From Chitinophagales bacterium (GTDB taxonomy: Bacteria > Bacteroidota > Bacteroidia > Chitinophagales > Chitinophagaceae), in contig JANPKD010000028.1 in assembly GCA_031425835.1 (NCBI GenBank), forward strand, positions 12,551-76,550: a stretch of 64,000 bases of DNA, in the 5' to 3' direction. Below, in pieces: positions 18,248-49,772 of this stretch. The notes beneath the pieces are model-generated. The model searched no databases and was not told the DNA's origin. It saw only the letters and a list, made by a program, of their open reading frames with translations. The number at the start of each line of letters is the position of its first letter. The first letter of the stretch is position 1. The position numbers and the translations under genes are program-made.

Positions 18248-18262
18248 TGGTATAATAATTTA
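18248..18262 (+). promoter_or_regulatory. Variant -24/-12-type element TGGTATA-ATAA-TTTA upstream of the SDR gene
   Basis: Has sigma-54 geometry (TGG at -24, T-rich -12 box) but lacks the GC dinucleotide. It lies 23 nt upstream of the ATG at 18286 and belongs to the recurrent family described in the findings. Confidence 0.4.
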
Positions 18263-18285
18263 GAGGTTGGCTGAAACCAATCACA

Positions 18286-19152
18286 ATGCAAAAAGGAGCA
18301 CCAAAAAAAGCAATCCGGCCACCGCAATCGCAACAGCTACCTGGCCTTCAAATTAAAATGAAGCCGCAACCAAAATCGCTACAACCACAGCCGTTAAAAA
18401 AACTTGCAGGTAAAGTGGCATTAATCACTGGTGGTGATAGTGGCATTGGCAGAGCGGTTGCATTGCTGTTTGCACAAGAAGGAGCCAATCTGGCCATATC
18501 TTATTTGCCCGCCGAAGAAAAAGATGCCCTCCTGGTAAAACGTTTGGTTGAAGAAGATTTTAATAGAACCTGTTTACTGCTCCCCGGGGATATCCGCAGG
18601 GAAAGTTACTGCCGCAAATTAGTGGCAAGCACGATAAAAAAGTTTGGCAAACTAGATATACTTGTGAACAACGCCGCCACGCAAACAGAGCAAAAGTCAC
18701 TAACTGATATTACGGATGCGCAATTGTTAAAAACCTTTGAGACGAATATTTTTTCAATGTTCCGCCTCACAAAATTTGCGCTTCCATTTTTAAAAAAAGG
18801 TGCTTGCATTATCAACACCACATCTGTAACAGCCTATCGTGGCAGTGCGGAGCTGCTCGACTATTCCGCAACGAAAGGGGCCATTCTTACCTTCACCAGG
18901 AGCCTTGCCCAGAACCTTGTAAAGAAAGGAATAAGAGTAAATGCCGTGGCACCCGGGCCCATTTGGACACCGCTGATTGCTGGTAGTTTTAAAGGGAAAA
19001 AAGTGGCGGAATTTGGTAGCGATGTTCCTATGGCAAGGGCAGGCGAACCCGAAGATGTGGCACCATGTTTTTTATTTCTTGCCTGCAACGATTCGGCGTA
19101 CATGACTGGTCAAACCTTACATCCTAACGGTGGTGAAATTGTAAATGGATAA
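18286..19152 (+). CDS. SDR-family oxidoreductase of the YdaD/YghA (general stress protein 39-like) type
   Basis: N-terminal Q/P-rich leader, then KLAGKVALITGGDSGIGRAVA. Catalytic Y...K context and NAVAPGPIWTPL are present. Confidence 0.8.
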   Translation: MQKGAPKKAIRPPQSQQLPGLQIKMKPQPKSLQPQPLKKLAGKVALITGGDSGIGRAVALLFAQEGANLAISYLPAEEKDALLVKRLVEEDFNRTCLLLPGDIRRESYCRKLVASTIKKFGKLDILVNNAATQTEQKSLTDITDAQLLKTFETNIFSMFRLTKFALPFLKKGACIINTTSVTAYRGSAELLDYSATKGAILTFTRSLAQNLVKKGIRVNAVAPGPIWTPLIAGSFKGKKVAEFGSDVPMARAGEPEDVAPCFLFLACNDSAYMTGQTLHPNGGEIVNG

Positions 19153-19237
19153 TGCCCAACCGTTTCGGCTTTGCTCGGATAAAGTAAATGCAGCAAGGAG
19201 TATGTTCTCAAAAAATTTACTAACCGAATTTTTCGGT

Positions 19238-19252
19238 TGGCACAGTTTTCGT
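19238..19252 (+). promoter_or_regulatory. Sigma-54-like element TGGCACA-GTTT-TCGT with no downstream ORF
   Basis: Perfect -24 half (TTGGCAC) and G at the -13 position. It points into the gap between convergent genes and is followed ~120 nt later by a strong hairpin plus T-tract. Confidence 0.3.
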
Positions 19253-19365
19253 TACTTCATATTTCTGAAAGTTCTTTTCTCTCAAGGGGTGGTTATTTCA
19301 AATTAACCTGAGATTATACCCATTGTACCTGCTACGGGTAATGCCGTCGAAGGGAACGAGAGAAT

Positions 19366-19403
19366 AAAAAGGTTCTGGCCTCCGGGTCAGAGCCTTTTGT
19401 TTT
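19366..19403. terminator. Bidirectional intrinsic terminator between the SDR gene and rsmG
   Basis: 10-bp stem GGTTCTGGCC / GGTCAGAGCC (19371-80 / 19385-94, two G-U pairs) with loop tccg. It is flanked by A5 and TTTTGTTTT. Confidence 0.75.
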
Positions 19404-20052
19404 ATACAGATGTGTAAAGCAAAAACTTTTCTTTAAAAAACGGTTCGTCAAATAAGGTACTCAGCTCGATTTTTTTTGGCCTCGCCCCACTCTCTGCGAT
19501 TTCATTTTTTAAATCGCCACCCTTTAAACAAATCAATCCCGATTGCAAAATTGTTTGCTCTCCACTTGCTTCTTGTACCTTATAACTTGATCTCTTTAAA
19601 ACTGGTGTGCCCCAGTTAAGTAAATCCTTTAGTGGCGCCACGGCACGGCTTACGGCAAAATCAAATTTCCTGTTTTTTATTTCTTCGGCCCGGCAATGCT
19701 GGGTGGTGATATTTTTTAGTTGAAGCACTTCTTTTACTGCTTCAATAACTTTTAATTTTTTACCAATGCTGTCCACCAAATGAAATTGCACTTCGGGAAA
19801 AAAAATAGCCAGCGGCACACCGGGGAAACCGCCCCCTGTTCCAATGTCAATAATCTTCAAGCCCCTTGGGAAATTAAAAACAGCGGCAATACTCAGCGAA
19901 TGCAGTACATGATTTTGATAAAGGCTTTCAATATCTTTTCTTGAAATGACATTGATTTTTGCATTCCATTCTTTGTACAACTCTTCCAGCGCAAAAAATT
20001 GCTGTGTTTGCGTGGCACTGAAATCGGAAAAATATTTTTGAATGATCAACAT
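19402..20052 (-). CDS. rsmG: 16S rRNA (guanine527-N7)-methyltransferase
   Basis: GidB-like sequence: start MLIIQKYFSDFS..., WNAKINVISRKD and the SAM motif IDIGTGGGFPGVPLAI. The start is moved to the ATG at 20052, which removes the overlap with the upstream gene. Confidence 0.85.
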   Translation of the reverse strand: MLIIQKYFSDFSATQTQQFFALEELYKEWNAKINVISRKDIESLYQNHVLHSLSIAAVFNFPRGLKIIDIGTGGGFPGVPLAIFFPEVQFHLVDSIGKKLKVIEAVKEVLQLKNITTQHCRAEEIKNRKFDFAVSRAVAPLKDLLNWGTPVLKRSSYKVQEASGEQTILQSGLICLKGGDLKNEIAESGARPKKIELSTLFDEPFFKEKFLLYTSV

Positions 20053-25708: not shown

Positions 25709-26053
25709 TCAGAAAAAATTATCCAGTGATTTAAGGCTGATTGGTTTCTCCCAAATGGTAAGTCTTGCGCCGTCAAGTTCAGAGGGCATGGTAGGGCGGA
25801 AGGCACTTATAAGATGGAACTCCACATCGGGATACCGCTGGTACAATTCGGGCAGTTTATCCCAGCCCAGTCCATCGGGTAAATTATAGTCTATAAAAAG
25901 ATAGTCTGGCTTAAGTTCACCCATGCGCACCACGCCGTTGGCTAGGGTGTGAGCTATATGAACGTCGTAGTTTTTGCGAAGGAAATACGTCTTCATAAGA
26001 AGACATAGATCTACTTCGTCATCGATTATCAATACTTTTTTTCTATTTGTCAT
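25709..26053 (-). CDS. Stand-alone response-regulator receiver protein (CheY-like)
   Basis: 114 aa with KKVLIIDDE, phospho-acceptor context LFIDYNLPDG and no output domain. Confidence 0.85.
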   Translation of the reverse strand: MTNRKKVLIIDDEVDLCLLMKTYFLRKNYDVHIAHTLANGVVRMGELKPDYLFIDYNLPDGLGWDKLPELYQRYPDVEFHLISAFRPTMPSELDGARLTIWEKPISLKSLDNFF

Positions 26054-26077
26054 AATGTTTGCTGCCGCTATTCATCC

Positions 26078-26092
26078 TAAATTATCGTACCA
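26078..26092 (-). promoter_or_regulatory. Variant -24/-12-type element TGGTACG-ATAA-TTTA upstream of the receiver gene
   Basis: 24 nt upstream of the ATG at 26053. It shares the 8-mer GGTACGAT with the sites at 26198 and 36414. Confidence 0.45.
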
Positions 26093-26197
26093 ATGCCGAA
26101 ACCAATAACTGTACCGGCTAACTCCAAAATTATGATTCATCTGTAGAATTATGTACCTAACTTTCTTTTCGAAATTGATAAACAACACTGCTAAACT

Positions 26198-26212
26198 TGG
26201 TACGATTATTTA
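26198..26212 (+). promoter_or_regulatory. Variant -24/-12-type element TGGTACG-ATTA-TTTA upstream of ytxH-like gene
   Basis: 45 nt upstream of the ATG at 26258, divergent from the copy at 26078-26092. Confidence 0.45.
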
Positions 26213-26257
26213 AACAATTTAGCTACATCATTCATTTACCTTAAAAATATTAAAGCT

Positions 26258-26515
26258 ATGACAACACAATCGAAAATTATCCTTGGTTTAGTAGGCGCCG
26301 CTGCAGCGGGTGTAGTAGTAGGTCTTCTTTTAGCACCTGATAAAGGTTCTGAAACTGTGAAGAAAGTAAAAGACACAGCTGGTACCTGGGCCGAGCATCT
26401 TACCGACCTGTTTGCAAACGCAAAAGATGAGGTGAGCAACCTTACAAAGAAGGGGTCCCGCGTTGCATCCGAAGCCGGAAACAAGTACAACAATATCACA
26501 GAAAGCTATAGCTAA
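26258..26515 (+). CDS. YtxH-domain general-stress-type protein
   Basis: 85 aa. N-terminal TM LGLVGAAAAGVVVGLLLAPDKGSETVKK, followed by an amphipathic helix. Confidence 0.8.
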   Translation: MTTQSKIILGLVGAAAAGVVVGLLLAPDKGSETVKKVKDTAGTWAEHLTDLFANAKDEVSNLTKKGSRVASEAGNKYNNITESYS

Positions 26516-26520
26516 GCAAA

Positions 26521-26666
26521 AAAGAGGCTGTATCAAAAAGGGCTAGCAGGTGTGCCAAAACAATAAAGTACGGTGTTTTAAATCTCTGCTTTAAAACCTT
26601 GGGCCTGCCGCCAGCTATCACCTAGCCTGCGGTGAACCCTACCGGTTGATACAGCCTTTTTATTTT
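26521..26666 (+). other. Long closed stem enclosing a ~108-nt structured insert, followed by a T-tract (complex terminator, attenuator or palindromic element)
   Basis: AGGCTGTATCAA (26525-36) pairs perfectly with TTGATACAGCCT (26646-57), and the flanking A/T runs extend the stem. Nested stems GGCTAG..GTG/CACCTAGCC occur inside. Two inner hairpins, AAAACA/TGTTTT and GTTTTAAA/TTTAAAAC, are mutually exclusive. Confidence 0.45.
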
Positions 26667-26690
26667 CTCTCAACAAAGAAATTACACGTA

Positions 26691-27065
26691 ATGACTGAGT
26701 TTACCAAGCAGCCTCCTGAGGAAAAAATTGGCTTGTCTCAATCGGCCGCGCAACTAAAAGCAACTGCAACCGATTATGCGAAAACATACGGCAAGCTTGT
26801 AAAGGCAAAGGTTACAAGGGGTGCTTCCGATGCCGCGGCGGGTGTTGCTATTGCAGTTGCCGCATTGTTATTCACTGTATTCTTTTTCATTTTTTCATTT
26901 ACAGGTTTGGCCCTGTGGCTGGGTGGTTTGCTAGGCAGTATTGCGGCAGGCTTCTTTTGTATTGCGGGCTTCTTTTTGTTTTTGCTGATTTTAGTTTTTG
27001 CACTGCGCAGAAAAGTTATTATTCCATTTATAAGGAACACGATTATTTCAAAAGTGTATGAGTAA
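26691..27065 (+). CDS. Phage-holin-family / Holin-X-like small membrane protein
   Basis: Two TM helices (AAAGVAIAVAALLFTVFFFIFSF, LLGSIAAGFFCIAGFFLFLLILVF). It is a common partner of YtxH genes. The start is moved to the ATG at 26691 because upstream codons translate the stem at 26646-57. Confidence 0.65.
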   Translation: MTEFTKQPPEEKIGLSQSAAQLKATATDYAKTYGKLVKAKVTRGASDAAAGVAIAVAALLFTVFFFIFSFTGLALWLGGLLGSIAAGFFCIAGFFLFLLILVFALRRKVIIPFIRNTIISKVYE

Positions 27066-27456
27066 AATAAAAACTTACGACGACTTATTACAGGAGGAAG
27101 AAAAACTTTTGGCCCAACTAAAATTGGGTGAGGCAAAACTAAAAACCGATATAGCAGGCGTGCGACAACGGCTAGAGCCGTTGGGCAGGGTGATGAAAAT
27201 GGTAAATAAATTCACTACGCGAGATAAGACGGGTGGCCTTTCAACCTTCGGCCTCGATTTTAGCATAGATCTTTTAGTACGCCGCGTACTGCTTGCAAAA
27301 GCGGGATGGTTTACTAAAATACTTGTCCCCTATCTCATAAAAAATTATGGATCGCATATCATCTCCGAAAAACAAAGGGCGAGCCTTTTTACAAAGATCA
27401 ATGCTGTTTTAAGCAAAATACGCCCTAAACGAAACGTACAGGATAATTATAATTAA
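27058..27456 (+). CDS. Hypothetical protein, translationally coupled to the preceding gene
   Basis: Its ATG at 27058 overlaps the preceding stop at 27063-65 (ATGAGTAA). 132 aa with a coiled-coil-like N-terminus. I recognise no family. Confidence 0.55.
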   Translation: MSKIKTYDDLLQEEEKLLAQLKLGEAKLKTDIAGVRQRLEPLGRVMKMVNKFTTRDKTGGLSTFGLDFSIDLLVRRVLLAKAGWFTKILVPYLIKNYGSHIISEKQRASLFTKINAVLSKIRPKRNVQDNYN

Positions 27457-27568
27457 ATGGGCAACTTAGGTCATGGACAAAAGCTGATTCCCAGCACTCT
27501 TGATTTTCATTTTTTCGCACTTGCCTAATTCTTAAAAAGAAAATGAGCGTGTCCGTTCGGTATGTTTT

Positions 27569-27583
27569 TGGCTACGCTGTATC
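27569..27583 (+). promoter_or_regulatory. Variant -24/-12-type element TGGCTAC-GCTG-TATC
   Basis: 32 nt upstream of the ATG at 27616. This is the weakest member of the family. Confidence 0.25.
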
Positions 27584-27615: not shown

Positions 27616-27876
27616 ATGCAAAACGTAAATGATCCCCGCAAAACAAATAATAATGCAGCGCCACTACCCAGGCATGATTTACCCATGCATGCAACTGCAA
27701 AACACAATGGTGATGACGAATCACTTGAAAGTTCCTCACCCAATGATACACGCTCAGATGAAAAAGTAATAGTAAATGAACAACGTGGTAATAAAACTGT
27801 AAATGAGCCATCGCAAACCGCTCCCAATACCAGCGAGGATATCAGCAGTGATGAAGAAATTGTAAACCAGCCATAG
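27616..27876 (+). CDS. Small hydrophilic acidic protein, likely disordered
   Basis: 86 aa rich in N/D/E/S/P, followed by a clear intrinsic terminator, which supports transcription. I recognise no family. Confidence 0.45.
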   Translation: MQNVNDPRKTNNNAAPLPRHDLPMHATAKHNGDDESLESSSPNDTRSDEKVIVNEQRGNKTVNEPSQTAPNTSEDISSDEEIVNQP

Positions 27877-28247: not shown

Positions 28248-28415
28248 CTACTCAACTCTTCTAAATCCACCAACAATTAAAGTGAGTACGAAAAGTATTA
28301 AAAAAATGTAGAAGAATATTTTTGCAACTGAAGTGGTATCTGCCGCTACGCTACCAAACCCAAATATGGCTGCTATTATCGCTACAACCAGGAAAATCAA
28401 TGTCCACCGTAACAT
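28248..28415 (-). CDS. DUF1328/UPF0391-type small membrane protein (55 aa, absent from the ORF track)
   Basis: Hand translation gives MLRWTLIFLVVAIIAAIFGFGSVAADTTSVAKIFFYIFLILFVLTLIVGGFRRVE, with the stop TAG at 28250-28248. It has the two-TM architecture and the FGF motif typical of YtjA-like proteins. Confidence 0.75.
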   Translation of the reverse strand: MLRWTLIFLVVAIIAAIFGFGSVAADTTSVAKIFFYIFLILFVLTLIVGGFRRVE

Positions 28416-28457
28416 GCTGATAAAATTTATTGGTTAAAAGATGTTCTACTACTCTTT

Positions 28458-28472
28458 GAAACAATTGTACCA
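28458..28472 (-). promoter_or_regulatory. Variant -24/-12-type element TGGTACA-ATTG-TTTC upstream of the DUF1328 gene
   Basis: 42 nt upstream of the ATG at 28415. Confidence 0.4.
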
Positions 28473-29061
28473 GTTTGCTGAATGGGATGAGCAATTTTTT
28501 CATTCAACAAATTGGACCTCCATTGAGGAAAAATTTCTACCAAGAGGCAAAAAAAAACAACCTCAACAACCTACACTTGAGCGCAAAAACATGGTATGTT
28601 TTTTACACTATTATTCAAATCATTCGATACTTACGACTATTTGCTTCAGCAATTATTATTTTAAAATGAGCACATCCAGCAACAGAAATCATTCAATTTT
28701 AAAAACTGCAAGCCCCGGCAAACCCACTGTTCCATTTGGCCGCCAGCCATCTCCAGGGCAAAAAATCAATGATCCGTCGTCCTCATATCCCAAAGAGGAG
28801 CACTACCCCATCCCCTCTTTTTTAAAGTACACGATGAAAGCGTCTGAATTGGAATTGAGATCATAACTTAACCCTGGCCTGCTTGCCCACTTCAGGACGG
28901 CATCTTTGTGGAAAAAATCCTTTTCCTGTAGAGCCTTCTCCCCACTTTTCGGTGTATTTTCATAAACCTACATCCAGCTAGTCCCCGACTACCGGCCTCA
29001 TTGATAAATTTTTCCTTACTGGTAGCAAGTTCTGGCGAACTGTAGCATTAAAACCAATTTT

Positions 29062-29105: not shown

Positions 29106-30521
29106 ATGATGAATCAACACCTTGCACAAAAACAAAGAATTAAAATTCTGCCTCAGCAAATTCAGTTACTCAATTTTTTTCATCTCAACACTCTGGAACT
29201 GGAACAACGAATTGAGCAGGAAATGGAGGACAACCCATTGTTGGAGGATCAGAACACCGAGTTTGAAGCCGACTCGGATAAGTTTAACAAGGACTCTGTT
29301 CAGGATTACCAGGATTGGGAAGAGCATGGCTACGACGATATACCCGACTACAAATTTGAGTACCAAAACTACCTGCACAACGACAAAGTACCCGAGCGGC
29401 CAATCTCGAACAGTTATGATTTTCGCCTGGCTTTAAAAGAACAGTACTGCGTAACTACAACCGAAGAGAAAGAAATTGTCTTCGCCCATTTTATAATTGA
29501 TTCGTTATCCGACGCAGGTTTGATGGAACAAAAGCTTGAAAGCCTTGCCGAAGACCTTTCGTTTAAATTGCACCGCTGGGTTGAAGAAGCCGATTTAGAG
29601 GCAATACTTTTAAAAATCCAGCAATTAGAACCTATTGGTATTGGCGCACGCAGCATTAAAGAATGCCTGTTGATACAGTTGCAACGCATGAATACAAAGC
29701 GGCCGGATGTAAAAACTGCCATTAACCTGCTCGATCAGCATTTTAATGATTTGCACAACCGCAACATGGACAAGATAAAAGCCCATTTAAACATTGATGA
29801 GGAAGAGTTGAAAATTGTTTTGCGATTGATTGCTTCACTAAAAATGCGCCCTGTTTGCGAAACGCAGGAAGGTGTGAACCAGAACATTATTCCCGATTTT
29901 ATAGTAACAAGAGTGGGCGACAATATTGAGGTGCAACTTTTTCGGCAGCGCAGCGAGGGCTTGAACATCAATACATCGTGGAAAGAAATGGCCGAGAATA
30001 ACGCCAAGGTTACTACCGATAAATCAGCCGTGCAGTACATCAAAAACAAATTGCAGTCGGCCCAGTGGTTTATACACGCAGTACAGCAAAGAGAAAGTAC
30101 TATGCTAAAAATAATGCGGTCGATTGTGGAAATGCAATTTGAATATTTTGTGACCGGGAACATTAACCTGCTTCAACCAATGATATTGAAAAACATTGCT
30201 GAAATAGTTGGGGTTGATATTTCAACCGTATCGAGAATTACCTGTAACAAGTACGCCGAAACACCTTTTGGATTAATATTGCTTAAAGATCTTTTTACCG
30301 AAGGTATCGCCAATCAAAAAGGCCAGGTCATCAGTAATAAGGTCATTCAATCGGCAATAGAAGAAGTAATAGAAACCGAAGACAAACATAATCCCTACAC
30401 CGATCAGCAACTGGTTAAAATCTTGAACCAAAAAGGATTTTCGGTTGCCCGGCGCACAGTGGCCAAATACCGCGAGCAGTTGCAAATACCGGTTTCGCAT
30501 GTCCGTGGTTTATGGGCATGA
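29106..30521 (+). CDS. rpoN: RNA polymerase sigma-54 factor
   Basis: Region I Q/L-rich start (LAQKQRIKILPQQIQLLNFF), acidic region II, core-binding region, HTH, and the RpoN box ARRTVAKYREQLQIP. Confidence 0.95.
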   Translation: MMNQHLAQKQRIKILPQQIQLLNFFHLNTLELEQRIEQEMEDNPLLEDQNTEFEADSDKFNKDSVQDYQDWEEHGYDDIPDYKFEYQNYLHNDKVPERPISNSYDFRLALKEQYCVTTTEEKEIVFAHFIIDSLSDAGLMEQKLESLAEDLSFKLHRWVEEADLEAILLKIQQLEPIGIGARSIKECLLIQLQRMNTKRPDVKTAINLLDQHFNDLHNRNMDKIKAHLNIDEEELKIVLRLIASLKMRPVCETQEGVNQNIIPDFIVTRVGDNIEVQLFRQRSEGLNINTSWKEMAENNAKVTTDKSAVQYIKNKLQSAQWFIHAVQQRESTMLKIMRSIVEMQFEYFVTGNINLLQPMILKNIAEIVGVDISTVSRITCNKYAETPFGLILLKDLFTEGIANQKGQVISNKVIQSAIEEVIETEDKHNPYTDQQLVKILNQKGFSVARRTVAKYREQLQIPVSHVRGLWA

Positions 30522-30588: not shown

Positions 30589-32079
30589 ATGCAAACCATT
30601 TTAATTATTGATGACGACAGGGACATGTGTATGTTACTTAAACGCTTCTTAACCCGTCATGGCTACGAAGTACTGGAAGCCTACACAGGCAAAAAATCGT
30701 TAGAACTCCTGGAAACTGTTGAGCCTTCGTTGGTGATGTGCGACTTTAGATTAGAGGACATGGAAGGCAATGTACTGCTTGCAAAAATAAAAGAACGTTA
30801 CCCGCATCTGCCCGTGATTATTATCACCGGCTATAGCGATATTAAAATGGCTGTGGAAGTAATGAAAATGGGCGCCTACGATTACATAACTAAGCCACTG
30901 TTTCCCGATGAAATTTTAGTGACTATTAAAAAAGCATTGGAGGCCGCCACCAAAGAAGCCAATGCACCTATCGGCAGTGTAGCCACCACCGCGGCAGCGC
31001 CACAAAAAACCGACCGACCTGCCTCCACCTCCACCGAAAAGCAACCGGTAATAACTGTTTCCGGCGATTATATTTTTGGCGACACGCCTGTATTCCGCCA
31101 AATTTTGCAGCAAATAGATTTGGTTGGCCCGACTAATTATACCGTTATCATTAATGGTGAAAGTGGCAGCGGTAAAGAAGCCGTGGCACAGGAAATTCAT
31201 AAACGCAGTAAAAGAAAGTCGAAACCATTCGTAGCAATTGATTGTGGTGCTTTATCTAAAGAGCTGGCGGGAAGCGAATTATTTGGTCACGAAAAAGGAT
31301 CATTCACCGGGGCACTCAATCAAAAAATGGGTTCGTTGGAAATGGCCAACGGCGGCACCATTTTTTTGGATGAAGTGGCCAACCTTTCTTACGATATTCA
31401 GGTGTCGCTGCTACGCGTGGTGCAGGAAAGAAAAATGCGCCGCGTAGGTGGTTTGAAGGACATTGAACTGGATGTGCGCATTATTATTGCCAGCAACGAA
31501 AAATTGTGGGATGCCGTACGCAAAGGCAAGTTTCGTGAAGATTTGTACCACCGCTTCAATGAATTTGGCATCGACATACCACCGCTGCGCCAACGGCCCG
31601 ATGACATCATGCTCTTCTCCAACCATTTTCTACAACAAACAAACGCCGAACTGGGCAAAAATGTAAAACGCTTTAGTCCGGAAGTGGAAAACATCTTTCG
31701 CACTTATGTTTGGTATGGTAACCTTCGGGAGTTGCGTAATGTAATTAAACGGGCCACTTTGCTGAACGACGGCGAAGAAATAGAAGCCAATTCCCTTCCA
31801 TTTGAAATAGCGCATTTCAGCAAACTACAATTTGATGCGACGCCAGAGCCGGCTGCGACCAATTCTATTCCTACCATTGCTACCGAAATTGCCGACTCGC
31901 CACGTAACATTTCGGAAACCACGTTAAAAGGCGCGAGTATAGATGCGGAATATGAAATGATTTTGAAAGCACTTAAAAAAGTAAACTTCAATAAAAGCAA
32001 AGCCGCCAAACTGCTGAACATTGACCGCAAGACTTTGTATAATAAAATGAAGCAGTACCAGGAATTCAACAACCAGTAA
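30589..32079 (+). CDS. Sigma-54-dependent response regulator (NtrC-type: REC + AAA+ + Fis-type HTH)
   Basis: REC (ILIIDDDRDM, CDFRLEDMEG). Walker A GESGSGKE, GSFTGA (a GAFTGA variant), Walker B FLDEV, and the arginine finger region. C-terminal HTH KSKAAKLLNIDRKTLYNKMK. Confidence 0.92.
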   Translation: MQTILIIDDDRDMCMLLKRFLTRHGYEVLEAYTGKKSLELLETVEPSLVMCDFRLEDMEGNVLLAKIKERYPHLPVIIITGYSDIKMAVEVMKMGAYDYITKPLFPDEILVTIKKALEAATKEANAPIGSVATTAAAPQKTDRPASTSTEKQPVITVSGDYIFGDTPVFRQILQQIDLVGPTNYTVIINGESGSGKEAVAQEIHKRSKRKSKPFVAIDCGALSKELAGSELFGHEKGSFTGALNQKMGSLEMANGGTIFLDEVANLSYDIQVSLLRVVQERKMRRVGGLKDIELDVRIIIASNEKLWDAVRKGKFREDLYHRFNEFGIDIPPLRQRPDDIMLFSNHFLQQTNAELGKNVKRFSPEVENIFRTYVWYGNLRELRNVIKRATLLNDGEEIEANSLPFEIAHFSKLQFDATPEPAATNSIPTIATEIADSPRNISETTLKGASIDAEYEMILKALKKVNFNKSKAAKLLNIDRKTLYNKMKQYQEFNNQ

Positions 32080-32093: not shown

Positions 32094-32567
32094 ATGCCCG
32101 ACCGAGCCGTGATTGATGCTGCAGCAACGCAGCCAGCCGAACAACATGGGGAGAAAAAGGTGTTTGTTGATTTAAATAAAATCATACAACAATGCCTTCT
32201 GAATTCTAGTTCGCTACAACGTGACCCCCGACCGGTTGTACGCTGTAGTAACCTCCCCGAAGTGGAGGGGGATGAGAGTGTCTTTGTTCGTCTGTTCGAT
32301 TTGCTGATCAAATCAATATTTAATCACCCGCCACCAGGTAAACAGCTTTTCCTGCATGTTGATTGCGAGCGGGTAAAGCAAATGCCTGCGGATGTTTCAG
32401 GTTTTCAAATAGACTTTTATACCAACCTGATTATTACAGACGACTGGATTGTAAAATACCAGCAATCCCTTTCACAGTGTCAAACAGAACTTGCGGAAAA
32501 CAATGCTGCACTCAAAATACACAATCCTCCTTCGCATGCCCGTTTGTTTACCATAACCTACCATTAA
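32094..32567 (+). CDS. Hypothetical protein, possibly a degenerate histidine-kinase ATPase-like domain
   Basis: 157 aa. LFDLLIKSIFNHPPPGKQLFLHV resembles an N-box region, but no G1/G2 nucleotide-binding boxes or HisKA are visible. Confidence 0.45.
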   Translation: MPDRAVIDAAATQPAEQHGEKKVFVDLNKIIQQCLLNSSSLQRDPRPVVRCSNLPEVEGDESVFVRLFDLLIKSIFNHPPPGKQLFLHVDCERVKQMPADVSGFQIDFYTNLIITDDWIVKYQQSLSQCQTELAENNAALKIHNPPSHARLFTITYH

Positions 32568-35785: not shown

Positions 35786-35800
35786 GAAAATAGCTTGCCA
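35786..35800 (-). promoter_or_regulatory. Variant -24/-12-type element TGGCAAG-CTAT-TTTC upstream of the DUF326 gene
   Basis: 66 nt upstream of the ATG at 35719. Confidence 0.35.
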
Positions 35801-35860
35801 AATATGTTGACCACTGTACTGTGTTTGCCGACCTGCGCTTGGGTAGATAATTCTACAAAA

Positions 35861-35910: not shown

Positions 35911-36375
35911 TTAGCTTGCAGCTCTCTGCAAATCACGCAGGCGTTTTACTTCATCGTGCCCTTGTCTTAAAGCGGCTTTCTGACGAACAACCAACTCCCT
36001 AACCGAAGGATCTAACTCCTCATCTGCATTGAGTGCCGTGTCGTAAGCTTTTTGTGCAGCGTCTTCGCCAAACTCACAGTTTTCTAAAACGGCCTTACGG
36101 TCATGACCACTTACTGCTGCTTTCAAATCCATCCACACACGGTAGACTTTACCAGAGTTGGTTGTGCCTTCGGCAGGTTCGCCACCCATGGCCGACACTT
36201 CCTGTGTTAGCTCCTGGCCATATTGGCGACTCTCTGTTACATACCTTTGAAATAAAGTTTTTAGATCGTTGTCTTCGTCCTTCAGTTCATCAATTGCTTT
36301 TTCGTACCCAACCACACGGTCGTGGTTAATGCGTATCAGGTCATTAAGAATGCCTATTGTTTTTTCGTTTGCCAT
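35911..36375 (-). CDS. PA2169/DUF2383-family ferritin-like four-helix-bundle protein
   Basis: LNDLIRINHDRVVGYEKAI...FQRYVTESRQYGQEL...CEFGEDAAQKAYDTAL pattern, 154 aa. Confidence 0.8.
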   Translation of the reverse strand: MANEKTIGILNDLIRINHDRVVGYEKAIDELKDEDNDLKTLFQRYVTESRQYGQELTQEVSAMGGEPAEGTTNSGKVYRVWMDLKAAVSGHDRKAVLENCEFGEDAAQKAYDTALNADEELDPSVRELVVRQKAALRQGHDEVKRLRDLQRAAS

Positions 36376-36399
36376 AAGTTTATATTTTAGTTAGGCTAT

Positions 36400-36414
36400 C
36401 AAAAAATCGTACCG
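36400..36414 (-). promoter_or_regulatory. Variant -24/-12-type element CGGTACG-ATTT-TTTG upstream of the DUF2383 gene
   Basis: 24 nt upstream of the ATG at 36375. The TTTTGAT-N22-ATG geometry is identical to the site in front of the DUF892 gene. Confidence 0.45.
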
Positions 36415-36507
36415 CAGTTATCAGCCGTCAGAAGTCAAAGGTCAGAGGTCAGAGTAGTAGACTTTGAACTTTTGACTTTGACCTTGTACTTTTACCTCAG
36501 AGCTACT

Positions 36508-38572: not shown

Positions 38573-38587
38573 TGGTACTCAATTTGA
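38573..38587 (+). promoter_or_regulatory. Near-canonical sigma-54-type promoter TGGTACT-CAAT-TTGA for the Ku/LigD operon
   Basis: GG-N10-GA spacing, with the G of the -12 GC conserved. It lies 31 nt upstream of the ATG at 38619 and is divergent from the site at 38158-38172. Confidence 0.5.
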
Positions 38588-38618
38588 ACTGATGCCTACA
38601 GAAAACTAAATATTTTTT

Positions 38619-39110
38619 ATGGCTGCTCATTACCAACTCAATTTTATACAGGATAAAATTGCACAAATCCAAAGTGCAATTTGCTTCAATCTAAGTGATT
38701 CTGTTTTAAAGTTACCTACCAGTGTTATTACAACTTTAAAGGTTGATGACTATGGCTTCGTGTGGTTTATGATGCAAAAGCCAAAGCAGTGTTTGAAGGA
38801 ATTTGAGGATGAGTTTCCGGTACGCCTTGATTATTTCAAAAAAGGAATCAATTCGTTTTTACAGGTGTCGGGTAAGGGATGTGTCGTATGCGACCCGGAG
38901 GAACTAAACACCCTCGGTTTATCGGACGACGCATTCAAATCCTTCAATGCTCAAAAAGATGTGCTGGTAAAAGTAAAAATATTGAAGGCAGAATGCTACG
39001 ATACTACACCCACCTCCAGCCACTCCTGGTTTAAAAACCGGTTAACAGCAATTACAAAATGGCTGCATCACAATAATTATGGACGACAAATTTATTATCC
39101 AGCCTCCTAA
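38619..39110 (+). CDS. Pyridoxamine-5-phosphate-oxidase-like / general stress protein 26-like protein (tentative)
   Basis: 163 aa with a split-barrel-like pattern (VITTLKVDDYGFVWFMM...FLQVSGKGCVV...VKVKILKAECY). The assignment rests on resemblance only. Confidence 0.5.
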   Translation: MAAHYQLNFIQDKIAQIQSAICFNLSDSVLKLPTSVITTLKVDDYGFVWFMMQKPKQCLKEFEDEFPVRLDYFKKGINSFLQVSGKGCVVCDPEELNTLGLSDDAFKSFNAQKDVLVKVKILKAECYDTTPTSSHSWFKNRLTAITKWLHHNNYGRQIYYPAS

Positions 39111-39122
39111 AAATATTTAAGT

Positions 39123-39899
39123 ATGCATGTAATATGGTCTGGCGCAATAAGCTTTGGTTTAGTAAATATTCCCGTTAAATTGAGTAGTGCAGTTGAAAGC
39201 GGAAGTGAATTGAACTTCGACATGCTTTCTAAAAAAGACATGGCACCGATACGTTACGCAAGAATTGATACGAAGACTGAAAAAGAAGTTGAGTGGAAAA
39301 ATATTGTAAAGGGTTATGAGTATGCCAAAGGAAAATATGTTGTGATTACAGATGAGGATTTTGAAAAAGCCAGGGCCGAAAAATCGCACACGATAGAAAT
39401 TCTGCAGTTTGTAAAAGAGGAAGAGATTAACCCTATTTACTACGAAAAGCCCTACTATGTTTCTCCCGATAAAGGCGCCGGCAAATCGTACCAGCTAATT
39501 ATAAAGGCACTTGAAAAAACCAAAACGGTTGGCCTTGCCGAGTTTATGTTGCGTAACCGCATGCACCTCTGTGCTTTAAAAGTACACGAGGGTGTTTTGT
39601 TGCTCAACCAAATGCGCTACCACGATGAGTTGAGGGAGGTGCCCGCCATCGCCGGTACTAAAGCCGAAATATCCGTGAAGGAAGTGGACCTGGCAGTAAA
39701 ACTAATTCACCAGCTTACCGAAAAGTTTGAGCCAACCGCTTTCAAAGACAATTATATAGCCGCTCTAAAAAAAGTGATAAAATCAAAAGCCTCAGGCAAA
39801 ACTCTGCGCATAGCCGAACCTGTAAAAAAATCGGCCACAGTAAAAGATTTAATGGAGGTGCTCAAACAAAGCCTCGAAACAAAAAAGAAAACGGCCTAA
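39123..39899 (+). CDS. ku: Ku protein (non-homologous end joining)
   Basis: IWSGAISFGLVNIPVKL.SA......F.ML.......IRY.......KEVEW..IVKGYEY..GKYV core, with a basic C-terminal tail. Confidence 0.93.
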   Translation: MHVIWSGAISFGLVNIPVKLSSAVESGSELNFDMLSKKDMAPIRYARIDTKTEKEVEWKNIVKGYEYAKGKYVVITDEDFEKARAEKSHTIEILQFVKEEEINPIYYEKPYYVSPDKGAGKSYQLIIKALEKTKTVGLAEFMLRNRMHLCALKVHEGVLLLNQMRYHDELREVPAIAGTKAEISVKEVDLAVKLIHQLTEKFEPTAFKDNYIAALKKVIKSKASGKTLRIAEPVKKSATVKDLMEVLKQSLETKKKTA

Positions 39900-39960
39900 C
39901 GATTTTTTTCCTTCTGCATGCGCACTTGCAACTTTGTAAACGCCACAACATTTTCGCACC

Positions 39961-41664
39961 ATGTCACTTTCAGTTTACAATAAAAAAAGAAATTTTAAAG
40001 TCACCACTGAACCCGTTGGAAAAGAAAAAACGGCAAAAGGCAAACTCCGGTTTGTTGTTCAAAAACACGACGCCTCGCACCTCCACTACGACTTTCGGTT
40101 GGAGATAGAAGGTGTGCTAAAAAGTTGGGCGGTACCAAAGGGCCCGTCGCTAAACCCAGCCGACAAACGGCTTGCAATGGCCGTGGAAGATCATCCTTTC
40201 GATTACAGAAATTTTGAGGGAATTATACCGGAAGGCAACTATGGTGGCGGCACGGTAATCGTTTGGGATGAAGGCACATACCAACCAGTTGGGGGGGAGC
40301 ATTTAACAAAAGCCGAACAGGAAAAATTACTCCTTACCCAACTAAAAGACGGCAGCTTAAAAATTATTGTACATGGAGAAAAGTTAGGCGGCGAGTTTGC
40401 TTTGTTTTTAATGAAGGGCCGTGGCGAACGGTCGTGGATATTGATGAAAAAGAAAGATGAGTTTTCCACCACCGCAAATGTTCTATTGGAGGATGCCTCG
40501 GTAAAATCGGGAAAAACGCTGGCCGAAGTAGCCGCTGAAAATGGTACGGTAATCAAACACCCCGAAGAAGCAAAACCCAGTAAAAAAGAAAAACCAAAAG
40601 CACCGGAATTATTGCCTAAAAAAACAGCAGCAGGCAAAAAAACAAAAGCGCCGAAACAAAAAACAACATCTGAAACTGTTGCGGGTAAAAAAAAGAAGGC
40701 GTCTCCAAAAATAAAAACATCGGGGCTGCAGATAGACATAACTGCGGGTGCCGATCAGACAATTGTTATCGATAAACATGAGCTGACTATTACCAGCCTC
40801 AATAAATTGTACTGGAAAAAAGAAAAGTTTAGCAAGGGCGATACCATCAATTATTATTTGCAGGCAGCACCCTATATTTTGCCGTACATGATCGGCAGGC
40901 CACAATCGCTCAACAGGCACCCGAACGGAATTGATGGACCCAGTTTTTATCAAAAAGACATGAAGGGAAAACTGCCGGAGTGGATGGAAACGCACAAAGA
41001 CTTTTCTGAATCAACCAGCAAAACAGTGGAGTATTTGGTGTGCAGTAACGAGGCAACTTTAATTTACATGGCCAATTTGGGTTGTATAGAAATGCATCCC
41101 TGGCATTCGCAAACGGCAAACTGGCAAAACCCTTACTGGTGCCTGATTGACCTGGATCCCGATACAAAAAACAGTTTTGCCCAGGTGATGGAAACAGCCC
41201 TGGTTACAAAAAATATTTTAGACGATATAGGTGCGGACAGTTACATAAAAACCTCAGGCTCCACGGGGCTCCATATTTATATTCCACTTGCCGCGCAATA
41301 CAGTTTCGATCAGTCGAAACAATTAGCCGAACTGGTTGTAAATCTTGTAAACGACCAGCTGCCTGAAACAACAAGCGTTGAACGAACACCGGCAAAAAGA
41401 AAAGGGAAAATTTATCTTGATTATTTACAAAACCGGGAAACCCAAACCGCAGCGGCGCCATATTCTTTACGGCCAAAACCTGGGATGCCTGTATCAACCC
41501 CCCTGCATTGGAGCGAAATAAAAAAAGGTTTGACGGCAACTACATACAACGCAAAAAATATTTTTGAACGTTTAAAAACCGAAGGTGATTTGTTTGCCCC
41601 CGTTTTGGGGAAAGGCATCAACCTGAAAAAAGTATTGGCTAATTTAACGGCCTTAATAAAATGA
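39961..41664 (+). CDS. ligD: LigD-type protein with 3-prime-phosphoesterase and polymerase/primase domains but no ligase domain
   Basis: PE domain RFVVQKHDASHLHYDFRLE..GVLKSWAVPKGPS. A Lys/Pro-rich linker follows. Pol domain LTITSLNKLYW...GRPQSLNRHPNGI...FYQKD...IDLDPD...SGSTGLHIYIPL...KIYLDYLQN. I see no adenylation KxDG motif anywhere in the 567 aa. Confidence 0.88.
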   Translation: MSLSVYNKKRNFKVTTEPVGKEKTAKGKLRFVVQKHDASHLHYDFRLEIEGVLKSWAVPKGPSLNPADKRLAMAVEDHPFDYRNFEGIIPEGNYGGGTVIVWDEGTYQPVGGEHLTKAEQEKLLLTQLKDGSLKIIVHGEKLGGEFALFLMKGRGERSWILMKKKDEFSTTANVLLEDASVKSGKTLAEVAAENGTVIKHPEEAKPSKKEKPKAPELLPKKTAAGKKTKAPKQKTTSETVAGKKKKASPKIKTSGLQIDITAGADQTIVIDKHELTITSLNKLYWKKEKFSKGDTINYYLQAAPYILPYMIGRPQSLNRHPNGIDGPSFYQKDMKGKLPEWMETHKDFSESTSKTVEYLVCSNEATLIYMANLGCIEMHPWHSQTANWQNPYWCLIDLDPDTKNSFAQVMETALVTKNILDDIGADSYIKTSGSTGLHIYIPLAAQYSFDQSKQLAELVVNLVNDQLPETTSVERTPAKRKGKIYLDYLQNRETQTAAAPYSLRPKPGMPVSTPLHWSEIKKGLTATTYNAKNIFERLKTEGDLFAPVLGKGINLKKVLANLTALIK

Positions 41665-47211: not shown

Positions 47212-47226
47212 GCTATTTATGTGCCA
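47212..47226 (-). promoter_or_regulatory. Canonical sigma-54 promoter TGGCACA-TAAA-TAGC(A) for the GT / glf / GH-RmlD operon
   Basis: TGGCAC-N5-TAGCA matches 10 of 11 consensus positions with exact GG-N10-GC spacing. The -12 C is at 47212, so the predicted start is near 47200, 1 nt before the ATG at 47199, giving a leaderless transcript. Confidence 0.7.
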
Positions 47227-47479: not shown

Positions 47480-47494
47480 TGGCATCATAGTTTT
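47480..47494 (+). promoter_or_regulatory. Variant -24/-12-type element TGGCATC-ATAG-TTTT
   Basis: 36 nt upstream of the ATG at 47531. Confidence 0.3.
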
Positions 47495-47530
47495 CGGATA
47501 AAAAATGTTTTAAATTCTTACCATTAAAAA

Positions 47531-47977
47531 ATGCTAGTAGAAAATTCAAAAGGCCGTTCTTCAAACGGTGGTGGCCGTAGCGACGATCAACGCGAAAGTA
47601 AAACTCAAAAAGCTACCTCAGGCCAAGAAACAAAAAAGAGAGGCCAGACCGATGACAGCTCCAGTAACAGCAACTCAAGAAGCAGCACCGATTCAGGTCG
47701 CGGAAATGGCGGGGTCATAGTCGTTAAGAAGAGGAGTCTTTTTTTAATGCCGGTAATCAGGCTACTTTTTTTTGCACCTGATTTTTCATGCGCAAAAATT
47801 CTTTTAGAAAATCAACCTCCTTCTGCAAATAAGCCTCGCCGTTTTCGCGAAAAATATCATGAAACCAGAGTTCCGGTTCGTTTAAATATTCTTTGCTCCA
47901 CGAATCCCATGGACAATGGGTTTGCGATTTACCAGCAACCAGCCCCCAGTTGTAAGCGCCTATATTATATTCCTTAA
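47531..47977 (+). CDS. Questionable ORF: Gly/Ser/Arg-rich hydrophilic N-terminal ~70 aa, with the remainder antisense to the GH5-like gene
   Basis: The N-terminal part MLVENSKGRSSNGGGRSDDQRESKTQ...DSGRGNGG resembles small stress-protein composition and has an upstream motif. However, the frame stays open for 220 nt across the convergent gene, which argues against the full ORF. Confidence 0.25.
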   Translation: MLVENSKGRSSNGGGRSDDQRESKTQKATSGQETKKRGQTDDSSSNSNSRSSTDSGRGNGGVIVVKKRSLFLMPVIRLLFFAPDFSCAKILLENQPPSANKPRRFREKYHETRVPVRLNILCSTNPMDNGFAIYQQPAPSCKRLYYIP

Positions 47978-48926
47978 ACAGCGGAAGAATTTCCTCGAAA
48001 GTATTTCCAAATGGACGAGCCATATATTCTGTGCAAAGCATTGGACGATTGTACCGCTCCTTGATAGAAACAATTCTTTCCTCTAAATTTTCCTTGCTTT
48101 CATAATTATGAAACGAGATAACATCGGAATGAGAAAACATGTAATCATCCAATGCCGAGATGCGGTGGCTACAATGCCAGTTGTGCTGCCAGGGAGCCAT
48201 GGTAATAGGCTGAGTAGGATCTATTTTTCTTATCCAGTTAATCGTTTTTTTAAGCAGGGCCATTGAAAGACTGCTTTTATGGGCATGGTAATCATCATCC
48301 TTGTAGCTTGAAAGATTCATGTTATCGGGCTCATTGAATACATCCCAGATTAAAACTCTGTCGTCGTTTTTAAAGTGCGACACAATACCATTTATATAAC
48401 TATGCAGTTCGTCGTGTCTCATAGGGTTGTTCAACACATCGTACCCCGGGCATTGCACCCAACCAGAATTGTGTACATTATGGCGGGGCTGAGGTTGAAC
48501 GCCTAATTTTGGAAAAGGGTCCCATACCGCATCAAACAACACAAACATGATTTTGATGCCATGCCTCGCTGCAATTTGTAAAAAATGGTCGATGCGATTT
48601 AAGTAAACTGCTCCATCCTGTTGCCATAACAACTGGTGCAAAAACACCCGTGCAGTATTAAAACCCAGGCTGGCCGCCCAACTTAATTCTTTGTCAATAA
48701 GTGCAGGTGAAAAACTTTCCGACTGCCACATTTCGAGCTGGTTGATGGCATTGGCTGGAATATAATTGCATCCTACAAGCCAGCCATTTTTATCAATCCA
48801 GTTTTGTGCTTTTGCTTCAGACCAGCGATACGCCAGTTCTGCGTCGGGTTCCAAAAAAGGAACGGTGCGTGTAGTGGTTTTCATGTTCAGAGGGTTGAAA
48901 CTTTCGTTTGTAAAAGTTACGAACAT
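47757..48926 (-). CDS. Clan GH-A (GH5-like) glycoside hydrolase, no signal peptide
   Basis: GFNTARVFLH, WDVFNEPDN (acid/base Glu) and LCTEYMARP (nucleophile Glu context). The first ATG is at 48926. An alternative start MKTTTR lies at 48884. Confidence 0.7.
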   Translation of the reverse strand: MFVTFTNESFNPLNMKTTTRTVPFLEPDAELAYRWSEAKAQNWIDKNGWLVGCNYIPANAINQLEMWQSESFSPALIDKELSWAASLGFNTARVFLHQLLWQQDGAVYLNRIDHFLQIAARHGIKIMFVLFDAVWDPFPKLGVQPQPRHNVHNSGWVQCPGYDVLNNPMRHDELHSYINGIVSHFKNDDRVLIWDVFNEPDNMNLSSYKDDDYHAHKSSLSMALLKKTINWIRKIDPTQPITMAPWQHNWHCSHRISALDDYMFSHSDVISFHNYESKENLEERIVSIKERYNRPMLCTEYMARPFGNTFEEILPLFKEYNIGAYNWGLVAGKSQTHCPWDSWSKEYLNEPELWFHDIFRENGEAYLQKEVDFLKEFLRMKNQVQKKVA

Positions 48927-49060
48927 CAAATTAAAAGGAAAACCAAAAAAAATGCAAGTATAAACTGGTTAAAACATCGATTTTATCGCTGTAGCAAGCG
49001 TAATTAAGGACGGAACCGAAAGCCAGAATTAGCAGCGGTCGTATAGGTTGGGGAGTTAAT

Positions 49061-49098
49061 AAAAATAAAAAGCCGTCTTTAAGTAAAGACAGCCTTTT
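49061..49098 (-). terminator. Intrinsic terminator of the DUF892 gene
   Basis: GCCGTCTTTA / TAAAGACAGC stem (49072-81 / 49084-93, one mismatch). On the minus strand it is followed by TTTTTATTTT. Confidence 0.65.
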
Positions 49099-49183
49099 AT
49101 CACCGGGGAAATGAGTGCTTTCAGCTCCCGGTTCTTTGTTTGTAAGTGGAAAGGCAAAAATGAAATTGCCCAAAGAATTCACC

Positions 49184-49732
49184 TTACTCCGCCGCGGCCT
49201 CGTAGTTGATGTTATTCTCAGCAATGTCTGTAAGGAGCATATCAGTTTCCTTTTCTTCATTAAGTGTTTGCTCCAATAACTCCGCAGCCTCAGCATGACC
49301 AAGCGTTTCGGCCAATTGCCGTAGTCCGCCGTAAGTGGCAATTTCGTAATGCTCCACTTTTTGCGCCGCCAGTATCAAGCCTACATCCCGCGTAGAGGTA
49401 CCCGCATCTGTGTCTTCAATAATACCTTCGCCTTCTTTGATAAGGCCTTCGATGGCTTCGCATTTTTTTGCGCTGGCCTTTGCTCCAATTGATTGAAACA
49501 CCTGTTCAAGCCGGGTAACCTGCTCTTTTGATACTGCTAAATGATCTTCAAATGCGGCCTTCAGCTTATCCGAAGTGGCTGCCTTTTGCATTTTGGGAAG
49601 CGCCTTAATAATTGCCTTTTCCGCATAATACACGTCTTTCAAAGAATCGAGAAAAAGTTCCTGCAGCAAAGCATCACCCTGTGCTGCTCCTGCGTTTTTT
49701 GGTTGTTTTGTTTTTGAAGTTGTCTTTGCCAT
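49184..49732 (-). CDS. DUF892 (YciE/YciF-like) ferritin-like stress protein
   Basis: LKDVYYAEKAIIKALPKM...AFEDHL..SKEQV.RLEQVF...CEAIEGLI.EGE......AAQKVEHYEIATYG.L pattern. Confidence 0.85.
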   Translation of the reverse strand: MAKTTSKTKQPKNAGAAQGDALLQELFLDSLKDVYYAEKAIIKALPKMQKAATSDKLKAAFEDHLAVSKEQVTRLEQVFQSIGAKASAKKCEAIEGLIKEGEGIIEDTDAGTSTRDVGLILAAQKVEHYEIATYGGLRQLAETLGHAEAAELLEQTLNEEKETDMLLTDIAENNINYEAAAE

Positions 49733-49757
49733 AATTTTCTAGTTTTACTAACGCATC

Positions 49758-49772
49758 AAAAAAATAATGCCA
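49758..49772 (-). promoter_or_regulatory. Variant -24/-12-type element TGGCATT-ATTT-TTTT upstream of the DUF892 gene
   Basis: TTGGCATTATTTTTTTGAT is followed by exactly 22 nt before the ATG at 49732. The DUF2383 site has the same TTTTGAT-N22-ATG arrangement. Confidence 0.45.

Follow-up and report, generated by a model that had tools for sequence, protein, structure and literature searches.

Canonical sigma-54/NtrC-type promoters are recognised by a GG at -24 within TGGYAYG, by a fixed spacing to a TT at -15/-14 and by the lack of a -35 box, and the Barrios consensus for them reportedly reads TGGCACGr-N3-TTGCW. The first three features are shared by a 16-nucleotide (nt) block that recurs in the DNA described here, a stretch of 64,000 nt from a Chitinophagales bacterium (assembly GCA_031425835.1, contig JANPKD010000028.1, positions 12,551 to 76,550 of the forward strand; the whole stretch is called the window below). 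The locus also resembles canonical systems in that rpoN is encoded alongside an activator of REC-AAA+-HTH_8 architecture with a GAFTGA-type loop, and in the presence of TTGC at the corresponding genes of Dyadobacter. Unlike canonical promoters, most sites here have T and W in place of G-13 and C-12; moreover, the candidate activator site lies only ~60-90 base pairs (bp) from the predicted start, and rpoN is apparently a member of the regulon. A promoter near-identical to the motif consensus, likewise with T at -13 and a long T-tract, is glnHp2 of Escherichia coli (TGGCACGATTTTTTCA), which is listed among validated sigma-54 promoters (S2 table of PMC12316311) and relies on a bend induced by IHF (PMC2709558). 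Nevertheless, glnHp2 is a single exceptional promoter of a nitrogen regulon, whereas here this type is the rule for a putative regulon and is conserved across two families.

Regarding gene content, the locus can be compared with the general stress regulons of sigma-B in Bacillus, RpoS in E. coli and EcfG in Alphaproteobacteria. It has in common with them YtxH, a YdaD-like SDR, DUF892 (YciE/F), DUF1328 and DUF2383, and the overlap extends to DUF6496, a GSP26-like Pyrid_ox_like protein and PLDc_N. Alike are also a sigma operon that is apparently positively autoregulated, and kinases and single-domain receivers upstream in the pathway. However, those regulons use sigma-70-family factors with partner switching or proteolysis, whereas the system of the window would use an ATP-dependent enhancer mechanism. 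To our knowledge, environmental Bacteroidota have no sigma-B, RpoS or EcfG, which raises the question of how their protection during desiccation and stationary phase is coordinated. The locus offers a testable candidate answer, namely a phosphorelay module of sigma-54 and an enhancer-binding protein (EBP) with a recognisable promoter signature. The closest precedent in the phylum is Flavobacterium psychrophilum, whose sigma-54 regulon (motif SM4) has typical -24/-12 promoters and, as here, comprises stress and protein-quality genes, in that case protein-quality-control and envelope-stress genes; unlike here, the description of that regulon mentions neither an rpoN-EBP-kinase module nor promoters with a T-rich -12 element (PMC9723704). 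Our literature searches found no description of such a promoter class or of an rpoN-EBP-kinase stress module in Bacteroidota. The comparison presented below points to an undescribed sigma-54-driven general stress regulon of about a dozen operons clustered around the sigma-54 and activator genes, and the block is likely to be the core promoter of this general-stress-type regulon, transcribed by the sigma-54 RNA polymerase.

The window comes from a Flavisolibacter-like soil member of the Chitinophagaceae. Between 18 and 50 kb of it, small stress-type genes are scattered between housekeeping genes: an SDR, a receiver, YtxH and a holin-X-like protein, DUF1328, DUF326 and BrkB, DUF2383, DUF892, topoisomerase IB, and Ku-LigD. 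The comparison sample consisted of 78 rpoN-centred loci from related Chitinophagaceae genomes (the window sigma-54 protein has 83-87% identity with Flavisolibacter sequences), in which the upstream regions of the orthologues of the window genes were read. In these loci the 16-nt block, tGGYAYGrTwtTTTwa, holds 1.1-1.5 bits per unconstrained position, that is, per position left free by the search pattern, against 0.08-0.3 in its 5' flank. Its family-averaged consensus is T(-1) G G Y A Y G r T w t T T T w W, with positions counted from the first G of GG as 0. Each gene family has kept the block, at its own characteristic distance from the start codon, amid diverged flanks. The block is asymmetric, and its orientation towards the downstream gene is strict. 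The GG is invariant at every orthologous site examined, including those missed by the regular expression, and the GG-N8-TT spacing shows no register shifts. Nothing is conserved from -30 to -2 in the orthologous sites, and there is therefore no -35 box.

The preliminary description of this stretch had proposed that a motif of -24/-12 geometry, with T-rich sequence replacing the GC of the -12 element, recurs upstream of at least nine stress genes of the sigma-B/RpoS type, and had suggested a matrix scan and a search for conservation upstream of orthologues. For the scan, a matrix was trained on orthologous sites of seven families from other genomes, leaving the window sites out (maximum 20.96 bits). 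It finds eight window sites of at least 15 bits, against 0.59 +/- 0.75 in 300 shuffles (maximum 4), which is a sharp enrichment, and seven of the eight lie 38-81 nt 5' of a start codon on the same strand. For the loose pattern TGGYA-N6-TTT the enrichment is only mild (23 matches in the window, 13.1 +/- 3.8 in shuffles). In the 78 loci plus the window (1.29 Mb), 174 of 267 matches of at least 14 bits (65%) are intergenic and at most 150 nt upstream of a same-strand open reading frame (ORF), a count that takes in the matrix-training sites; a crude ORF call rates 84% of this sequence as coding. The block is also kept upstream of orthologues across the related Chitinophagaceae loci, and the gene content downstream is that of a general-stress set. 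The sites in the window and the genes they precede are the following:

18248-18263, plus strand: SDR promoter site TGGTATAATAATTTAG, 16.4 bits, 38 nt upstream of the SDR gene (18286-19152).
26077-26092, minus strand: receiver promoter site TGGTACGATAATTTAG, 18.0 bits.
26198-26213, plus strand: ytxH-operon promoter site TGGTACGATTATTTAA, 19.7 bits.
26258-27456, plus strand: ytxH operon, with YtxH (26258-26515), a holin-X-like gene (26691-27065) and an ORF (27058-27456), assigned by Pfam.
27558-27573, plus strand: corrected site CGGTATGTTTTTGGCT of an acidic ORF of 86 residues (27616-27876), with GG-N10-GC spacing.
28457-28472, minus strand: DUF1328 promoter site TGGTACAATTGTTTCA, 15.4 bits (gene 28248-28415).
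28592-28607, plus strand: added site TGGTATGTTTTTTACA, 16.9 bits, upstream of a small ORF (28666-28866) and the rpoN operon.
35785-35800, minus strand: DUF326 promoter site TGGCAAGCTATTTTCT, 12.7 bits (gene 35342-35719).
36399-36414, minus strand: DUF2383 promoter site CGGTACGATTTTTTGA, 16.5 bits (gene 35911-36375).
38573-38588, plus strand: added site TGGTACTCAATTTGAA of the ORF163-Ku-LigD operon (38619-41664; Ku and LigD by Pfam).
47480-47495, plus strand: unverified candidate site TGGCATCATAGTTTTC of a Gly/Ser-rich ORF, 8.0 bits.
49757-49772, minus strand: DUF892 promoter site TGGCATTATTTTTTTG, 15.5 bits (gene 49184-49732).

The receiver block TGGTATGATAATTwA is kept in ~40 loci, the ytxH block TTGGTAyGATTATTTAA in 40 of 45 (at ~-57 from the start codon), the DUF1328 block ATGGTAyrrTTCTTTrA in 31 of 39, and the DUF892 block CTGGCAyTATwTTTT in 10 of 11 orthologous upstream regions. 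The DUF2383 block sGGTAyGrTTTTTT stands upstream of the gene in ~40 of 43 loci when read by eye (a stricter regular expression caught 17), and TTTTGTGGTATyyAATTTGG precedes the ORF163-Ku-LigD operon in 19 loci; ORF163 itself has a weak match to Pyrid_ox_like, under cutoff. DUF326 orthologues carry TTGGCAGGyTATTTTCT, and the window site of this gene probably also serves BrkB (34255-35178). The SDR gene (Pfam adh_short) has orthologues in two loci, L040 and L042, with TGGAAyAnnTTTTTCT just 5' of the start, and the orthologues of the acidic ORF have aGGTAyrkTTTTT at an equal distance from theirs. The site 5' of the conserved ORF of 66 residues that precedes rpoN is present in 25 loci, and in L053 rpoN itself is preceded by a site, TGGCACGGTTTTTTCT, at a distance of 55 nt. 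Genes for PLDc_N, DUF6496, a GSP26-like Pyrid_ox_like protein and BrkB join the set in other loci. Across loci the site precedes at least 12 gene families, and the operon of the regulator is one of its targets. Within the window the sites reach 11 kb and 19 kb from rpoN.

All nine strings quoted in the preliminary description were found again with their coordinates and strands, as were the 8-mer GGTACGAT, read directly in three of the nine sites, and the TTTTGAT-N22-ATG arrangement common to the DUF2383 and DUF892 sites. Two of the nine need amendment. The acidic-ORF site had been placed at 27569, which is 11 nt off: the TGGC taken there for a -24 box belongs to the conserved element that the orthologues indicate at 27558-27573. 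The string at 47480 is present as quoted, but it scores low and no orthologue of the Gly/Ser-rich ORF was found in any fetched locus. The count of at least nine sites holds after these corrections, thanks to the two added sites (28592 and 38573). A side feature of the receiver promoter is a tandem TTGG-type site, CGGTACAGTTATTGGT, at 26101-26116 on the minus strand, 24 nt upstream of the receiver site; none was seen in the other inspected loci.

Compared with the sigma-54 consensus, the motif agrees at all specified positions save the GC, where it has T and W; the consensus does not specify the T found at position 7 in 97% of the sites. The geometry proposed earlier is supported: the GG-N8-TT spacing is fixed and -13 is T in 80% of the sites. 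On the motif matrix glnHp2 reaches 20.4 of 20.96 bits, above every window site, while canonical E. coli sigma-54 promoters reach 2-7 bits; the DUF2383 site of the window differs from glnHp2 at 3 of 16 positions. Three families (ytxH, DUF1328 and DUF2383) show little conservation at +15..+24 and more at +25..+39; this rise would fit a transcript start ~12 nt past the -12 element, although it is an indirect hint.

Several observations weigh against transcription by sigma-54. The GC at -13/-12 (TTGCW), whose G is normally near-invariant, is missing at most sites, with -13 never G in the seven matrix families; the exceptions are the ORF163-Ku family (TTGG or TTGA), the acidic-ORF site of the window (TGGC) and the corresponding Dyadobacter genes (TTGC). 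T at -13 is rare among known sites, and by a hand count the G is missing in only 1 of 28 unique Desulfomicrobium sites in RegPrecise. In Flavisolibacter, T(-1) at 74%, G0 at 100%, T2 at 69%, A3 at 100% and T7 at 97% mimic TGnTAnnnT, the pattern of an extended -10 promoter. A candidate activator dyad, described below, occurs at only ~30% of the sites and is absent from several families. Finally, two rpoN genes are listed in Flavisolibacter ginsenosidimutans, Niastella koreensis and four other Chitinophagia (PMC12316311), and canonical TGGCAAAT-nn-CTTGCT promoters coexist with the T-rich class in Flavisolibacter loci. Because the GC feature fails the formal definition of a sigma-54 promoter, membership rests on comparative evidence and not on the textbook definition, and it is from this evidence that we infer sigma-54 dependence.

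If the block were an extended -10 promoter (TGnTAYGAT) of some alternative factor of the sigma-70 family, chance would have to account for the likeness to sigma-54 sites and for the nearness of rpoN. The SDR site holds a perfect TGGTATAAT, and a missing -35 box is compatible with promoters of this type. Nonetheless, the "n" of TGn (G1) is G at all orthologous sites examined, and conservation runs 5-7 nt beyond the hexamer, into the TTT. T2 changes to C or A in many families, and the family variants TGGCAC, TGGCAA and TGGAAY lack the -12 T of the hexamer. The ORF163-Ku family retains the G of -13, and at the -7 position, where the sigma-70 -10 hexamer needs its most conserved T, it shows A. The corresponding Dyadobacter genes have GG-N10-GC. 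In addition, no sigma-70-family gene is present among the ~50 larger window ORFs scanned, and the primary sigma factor of Bacteroidota uses TAnnTTTG, not TATAAT (PMC9723704). An extended -10 promoter is hence improbable. The Bacteroidota housekeeping pattern itself, -33 TTTG / -7 TAnnTTTG with ~19 bp between the two (PMC9723704), might be suspected in variant form, given that the T-rich 3' half superficially resembles the -7 box TTTG and that some sites end in TTTTG. However, TAnnTTTG fits most sites in no register, and a TTG 19-21 nt upstream is not conserved (<0.1 bit). The block might instead be a repressor or activator operator, but its asymmetry, strict orientation towards the gene and family-specific distance argue otherwise. 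Housekeeping promoter and operator together are regarded as very improbable.

The case for sigma-54 is strengthened by the genes that lie amid the sites and by their relatives in another order. The small ORF preceding rpoN, rpoN, the EBP gene, an ORF of 157 residues and a kinase gene form an apparent operon, and the receiver gene is encoded in the opposite direction:

25709-26053, minus strand: receiver gene, single-domain response regulator (Pfam Response_reg).
29106-30521, plus strand: rpoN, sigma-54 of 471 residues (Pfam AID, CBD, DBD; TIGR02395 at 361 bits, cutoff 277).
30589-32079, plus strand: NtrC-family EBP (Pfam REC - AAA+ - HTH_8).
32094-32567, plus strand: ORF of 157 residues.
32584-34026, plus strand: REC-PAS-HisKA-HATPase hybrid kinase (Pfam).

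The sigma-54 protein retains the RpoN box (ARRTVAKYRE) and the equivalent of R383, and the EBP has a GSFTGA loop at residue 237 and the Walker A motif GESGSGK; a sigma-54 and an EBP with a GAFTGA-type loop are thus both encoded in this genome. The rpoN-EBP-kinase operon is syntenic across Chitinophagaceae and Spirosomaceae, which belong to different orders. In Salmonirosea, Arundinibacter and Telluribacter the module recurs with the receiver on the minus strand and YtxH/holin-X-like, rpoN, EBP and REC-PAS kinase, and a reduced module is found in three Dyadobacter species. The receiver gene keeps its position in the loci of both families, and that of the hybrid kinase is matched in Spirosomaceae.

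Related promoter sites precede the corresponding genes of the two families. Those of the receiver gene read TGGCAGGATTATTGCC in D. fermentans, TGGCAAGATTATTTTA in Salmonirosea and Telluribacter, TGGCAAGGTTCTTTTA in Arundinibacter and TGGTAyGATAATTwA in Flavisolibacter. The sites upstream of rpoN read GGCAAGGGTTTTGCAT in D. fermentans, GGCAAGTAATTTGATA in D. tibetensis, GGCAAGTATTTTGTTA in D. jejuensis and TGGAATCAGTTTTTTT in other Spirosomaceae. In the corresponding promoters of Dyadobacter, the -12 element is TTGC, TTGA or TTGT, and the corresponding promoters form a series in which canonical sigma-54 sites are represented. All six Spirosomaceae sigma-54 proteins have a single common recognition helix in their helix-turn-helix (HTH), and D. 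fermentans is listed with one rpoN (Dfer_2750) and 15 activators, so that the sigma-54 of its module is the only one in that genome. Given the shared helix and the single rpoN, one sigma-54 evidently serves TTGC, TTGA, TTGT and T-rich sites. The preliminary description had left the choice between a lineage-specific sigma-54 promoter class and the target of a different factor; the comparative evidence favours sigma-54, but "lineage-specific" is too narrow because the T-rich class is also present in Spirosomaceae.

In Rhodobacter sphaeroides, RpoN paralogues have promoter- and activator-specific roles. The listing of more than one rpoN per genome for Flavisolibacter recalls that situation and, together with the coexistence of the two promoter classes, makes a division of labour between the copies possible. 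The T-rich sites could be read only by the module-encoded paralogue, which would be a sigma-54 dedicated to stress, its specificity for the -12 element relaxed or altered, while a second, housekeeping rpoN reads the canonical TTGC promoters. The module's own rpoN operon bears a T-rich site. As to the canonical class, the promoter TATGGCAAATnnCTTGCTATA is kept 39-43 nt upstream of a gene for a class-I glutamine amidotransferase-like protein of 275 residues in five Flavisolibacter loci, at these plus-strand positions:

L011, 2727, plus strand: canonical promoter TATGGCAAATnnCTTGCTATA.
L022, 2576, plus strand: the same.
L027, 2680, plus strand: the same.
L039, 2487, plus strand: the same.
L068, 2539, plus strand: the same.

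A TxNKY signature of the recognition helix is present in module-type sigma-54 proteins and absent from those in a housekeeping context. The latter context was observed in Siphonobacter (L081) and Mucilaginibacter (L083), in which rpoN lies by an aminoacyl-tRNA synthetase gene (Siphonobacter), or by mscL and rnpA, without an adjacent activator; the HTH helices there read SRVTSGKY and SRVANSKY, whereas module-type proteins have TxNKY. The difference suggests that sigma-54 of Bacteroidota falls into two lineages. On the other hand, unlike in R. sphaeroides, nothing in the loci gives evidence of differing specificity between copies: the lone rpoN of D. fermentans belongs to the module type, and both TTGC and TTTC sites are used there. 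In Spirosomaceae an identical HTH helix accompanies TTGC, TTGA, TTGT and TTTT promoters, with no covariation between HTH and promoter, and E. coli sigma-54 already uses a glnHp2-type site. The second Flavisolibacter rpoN was not recovered from the representative library, three cluster look-ups or a homologue search with P0135 (Cytophagales). With a single rpoN in Dyadobacter and glnHp2 as a precedent, no change of specificity is needed, and exclusive reading by the paralogue is rather unlikely. A replacement of E378 by I in the HTH was considered as a specificity switch and rejected, because it is Bacteroidota-wide (72 of 72 related proteins; among the 150 nearest cluster representatives, 105 have I and 19 have V at residue 378) and the sites used in F. 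psychrophilum are of the typical -24/-12 kind.

Regarding the mechanism by which sigma-54 would act at these promoters, the RpoN box would read the invariant GG and the TGGYAYG half at -24, while the -12 half would be a T-tract (TTTw, sometimes TTGG or TTGA) instead of TTGC. The promoters would then be glnHp2-like and probably weak binders of the sigma-54 holoenzyme. Since the closed complex would be weak without the GC, as at glnHp2, activation would need a cognate activator bound nearby in cis, and this requirement would insulate the regulon from the other activators of the genome. The likely activator, judging from gene adjacency, is the NtrC-family response regulator encoded directly after rpoN, which could be phosphorylated via the adjacent REC-PAS hybrid kinase and the single-domain receiver. 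Given that a site stands ahead of the small ORF-rpoN-EBP-kinase operon, the system probably amplifies itself by positive feedback.

A candidate for the activator site was found by inspecting divergent promoter pairs. The dyad GTAGA-N4-TCTAC occurs in the window at these positions:

26143-26156, no strand assigned: near-perfect dyad GTAGAATTATGTAC between the divergent receiver and ytxH promoters, candidate activator site.
28527-28540: further GTAGA-N4-TCTAC dyad (half-site GTAGAA).
35843-35856: perfect dyad GTAGAATTATCTAC at DUF326, of the form GTAGA-N4-TCTAC.

With up to two mismatches, it is present in 30% of the upstream regions against 8% of background. Its centre lies 35-63 bp upstream of the GG, often between divergent promoter pairs 100-120 bp apart, and a similar palindrome has the same position in Spirosomaceae loci, for instance TGTAACATTTTTACA in D. 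fermentans. The activator may bind this dyad at a subset of sites; this is a weak step of the scheme because the dyad is missing from several families. An unbiased search for common upstream 7-mers returned only A/T-rich words. A NifA-like sequence, TGT-N10-ACA, was discarded as it occurs only at the receiver/ytxH and DUF892 regions.

The candidate regulon would unite YtxH, DUF892, DUF2383, DUF1328, DUF326, SDR and GSP26-like proteins with the Ku-LigD end-joining genes. A whole conserved regulon may thus run on sigma-54 promoters without the -12 GC, sites of a kind that standard sigma-54 matrices would miss, and the case is relevant to the part that the -12 element plays in setting the stability of the closed complex and the specificity for an activator. 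More tentatively, Chitinophagales and Cytophagales may have a sigma-54-based general stress response: a self-amplifying rpoN-EBP-kinase-receiver module acting on promoters that lack the GC "lock" at -12, bind weakly and are tightly specific for one activator, the module copy being the dedicated stress sigma-54 in genomes with two rpoN genes. Taken as a whole, this broader proposal is speculative.

Some further observations concern the surroundings of the sites. Conserved 5'-leader blocks begin ~25 nt after the GG in L001-L075, namely ATTGCTCATyTTAAA in the ytxH family and GAAAATTTATTAACC in the DUF1328 family; in the window they correspond to ~26225-26257 and 28416-28445, respectively, and they may be translation-initiation or RNA elements. 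Tandem repeats of 6-7 nt (GTCAGAG four times, GACTTT five times) lie at 36427-36492, just 5' of the DUF2383 promoter and between it and the stop codon of topoisomerase IB, and CATTGAC-type repeat arrays are found upstream of DUF2383 or the acidic ORF in four other loci (L016, L020, L029 and L033).

The Gly/Ser-rich ORF (47531-47977, plus strand) overlaps by 220 nt a convergent GH5-like gene (47757-48926, minus strand), and only its first ~60 residues resemble a hydrophilic stress protein; one of the two gene models is therefore probably wrong. Divergent from its candidate site, TGGCACATAAATAGC at 47212-47226 on the minus strand has the canonical GG-N10-GC spacing and lies 13 nt upstream of a string of surface-polysaccharide genes (glycosyltransferase, UDP-galactopyranose mutase, RmlD-like). 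At the other end of the region, a tRNA-Ala (GGC) gene at 18101-18175 on the minus strand lies 73 nt from the SDR promoter site, and a listed ORF that overlaps it (17902-18138, minus strand) is probably spurious. Beyond the SDR gene, a TPP riboswitch (Rfam RF00059, 64 bits) at 19275-19373 on the plus strand is directly followed by a hairpin resembling a terminator, after which comes the 3' end of gidB, a convergent gene, with no plus-strand thiamine gene evident downstream.

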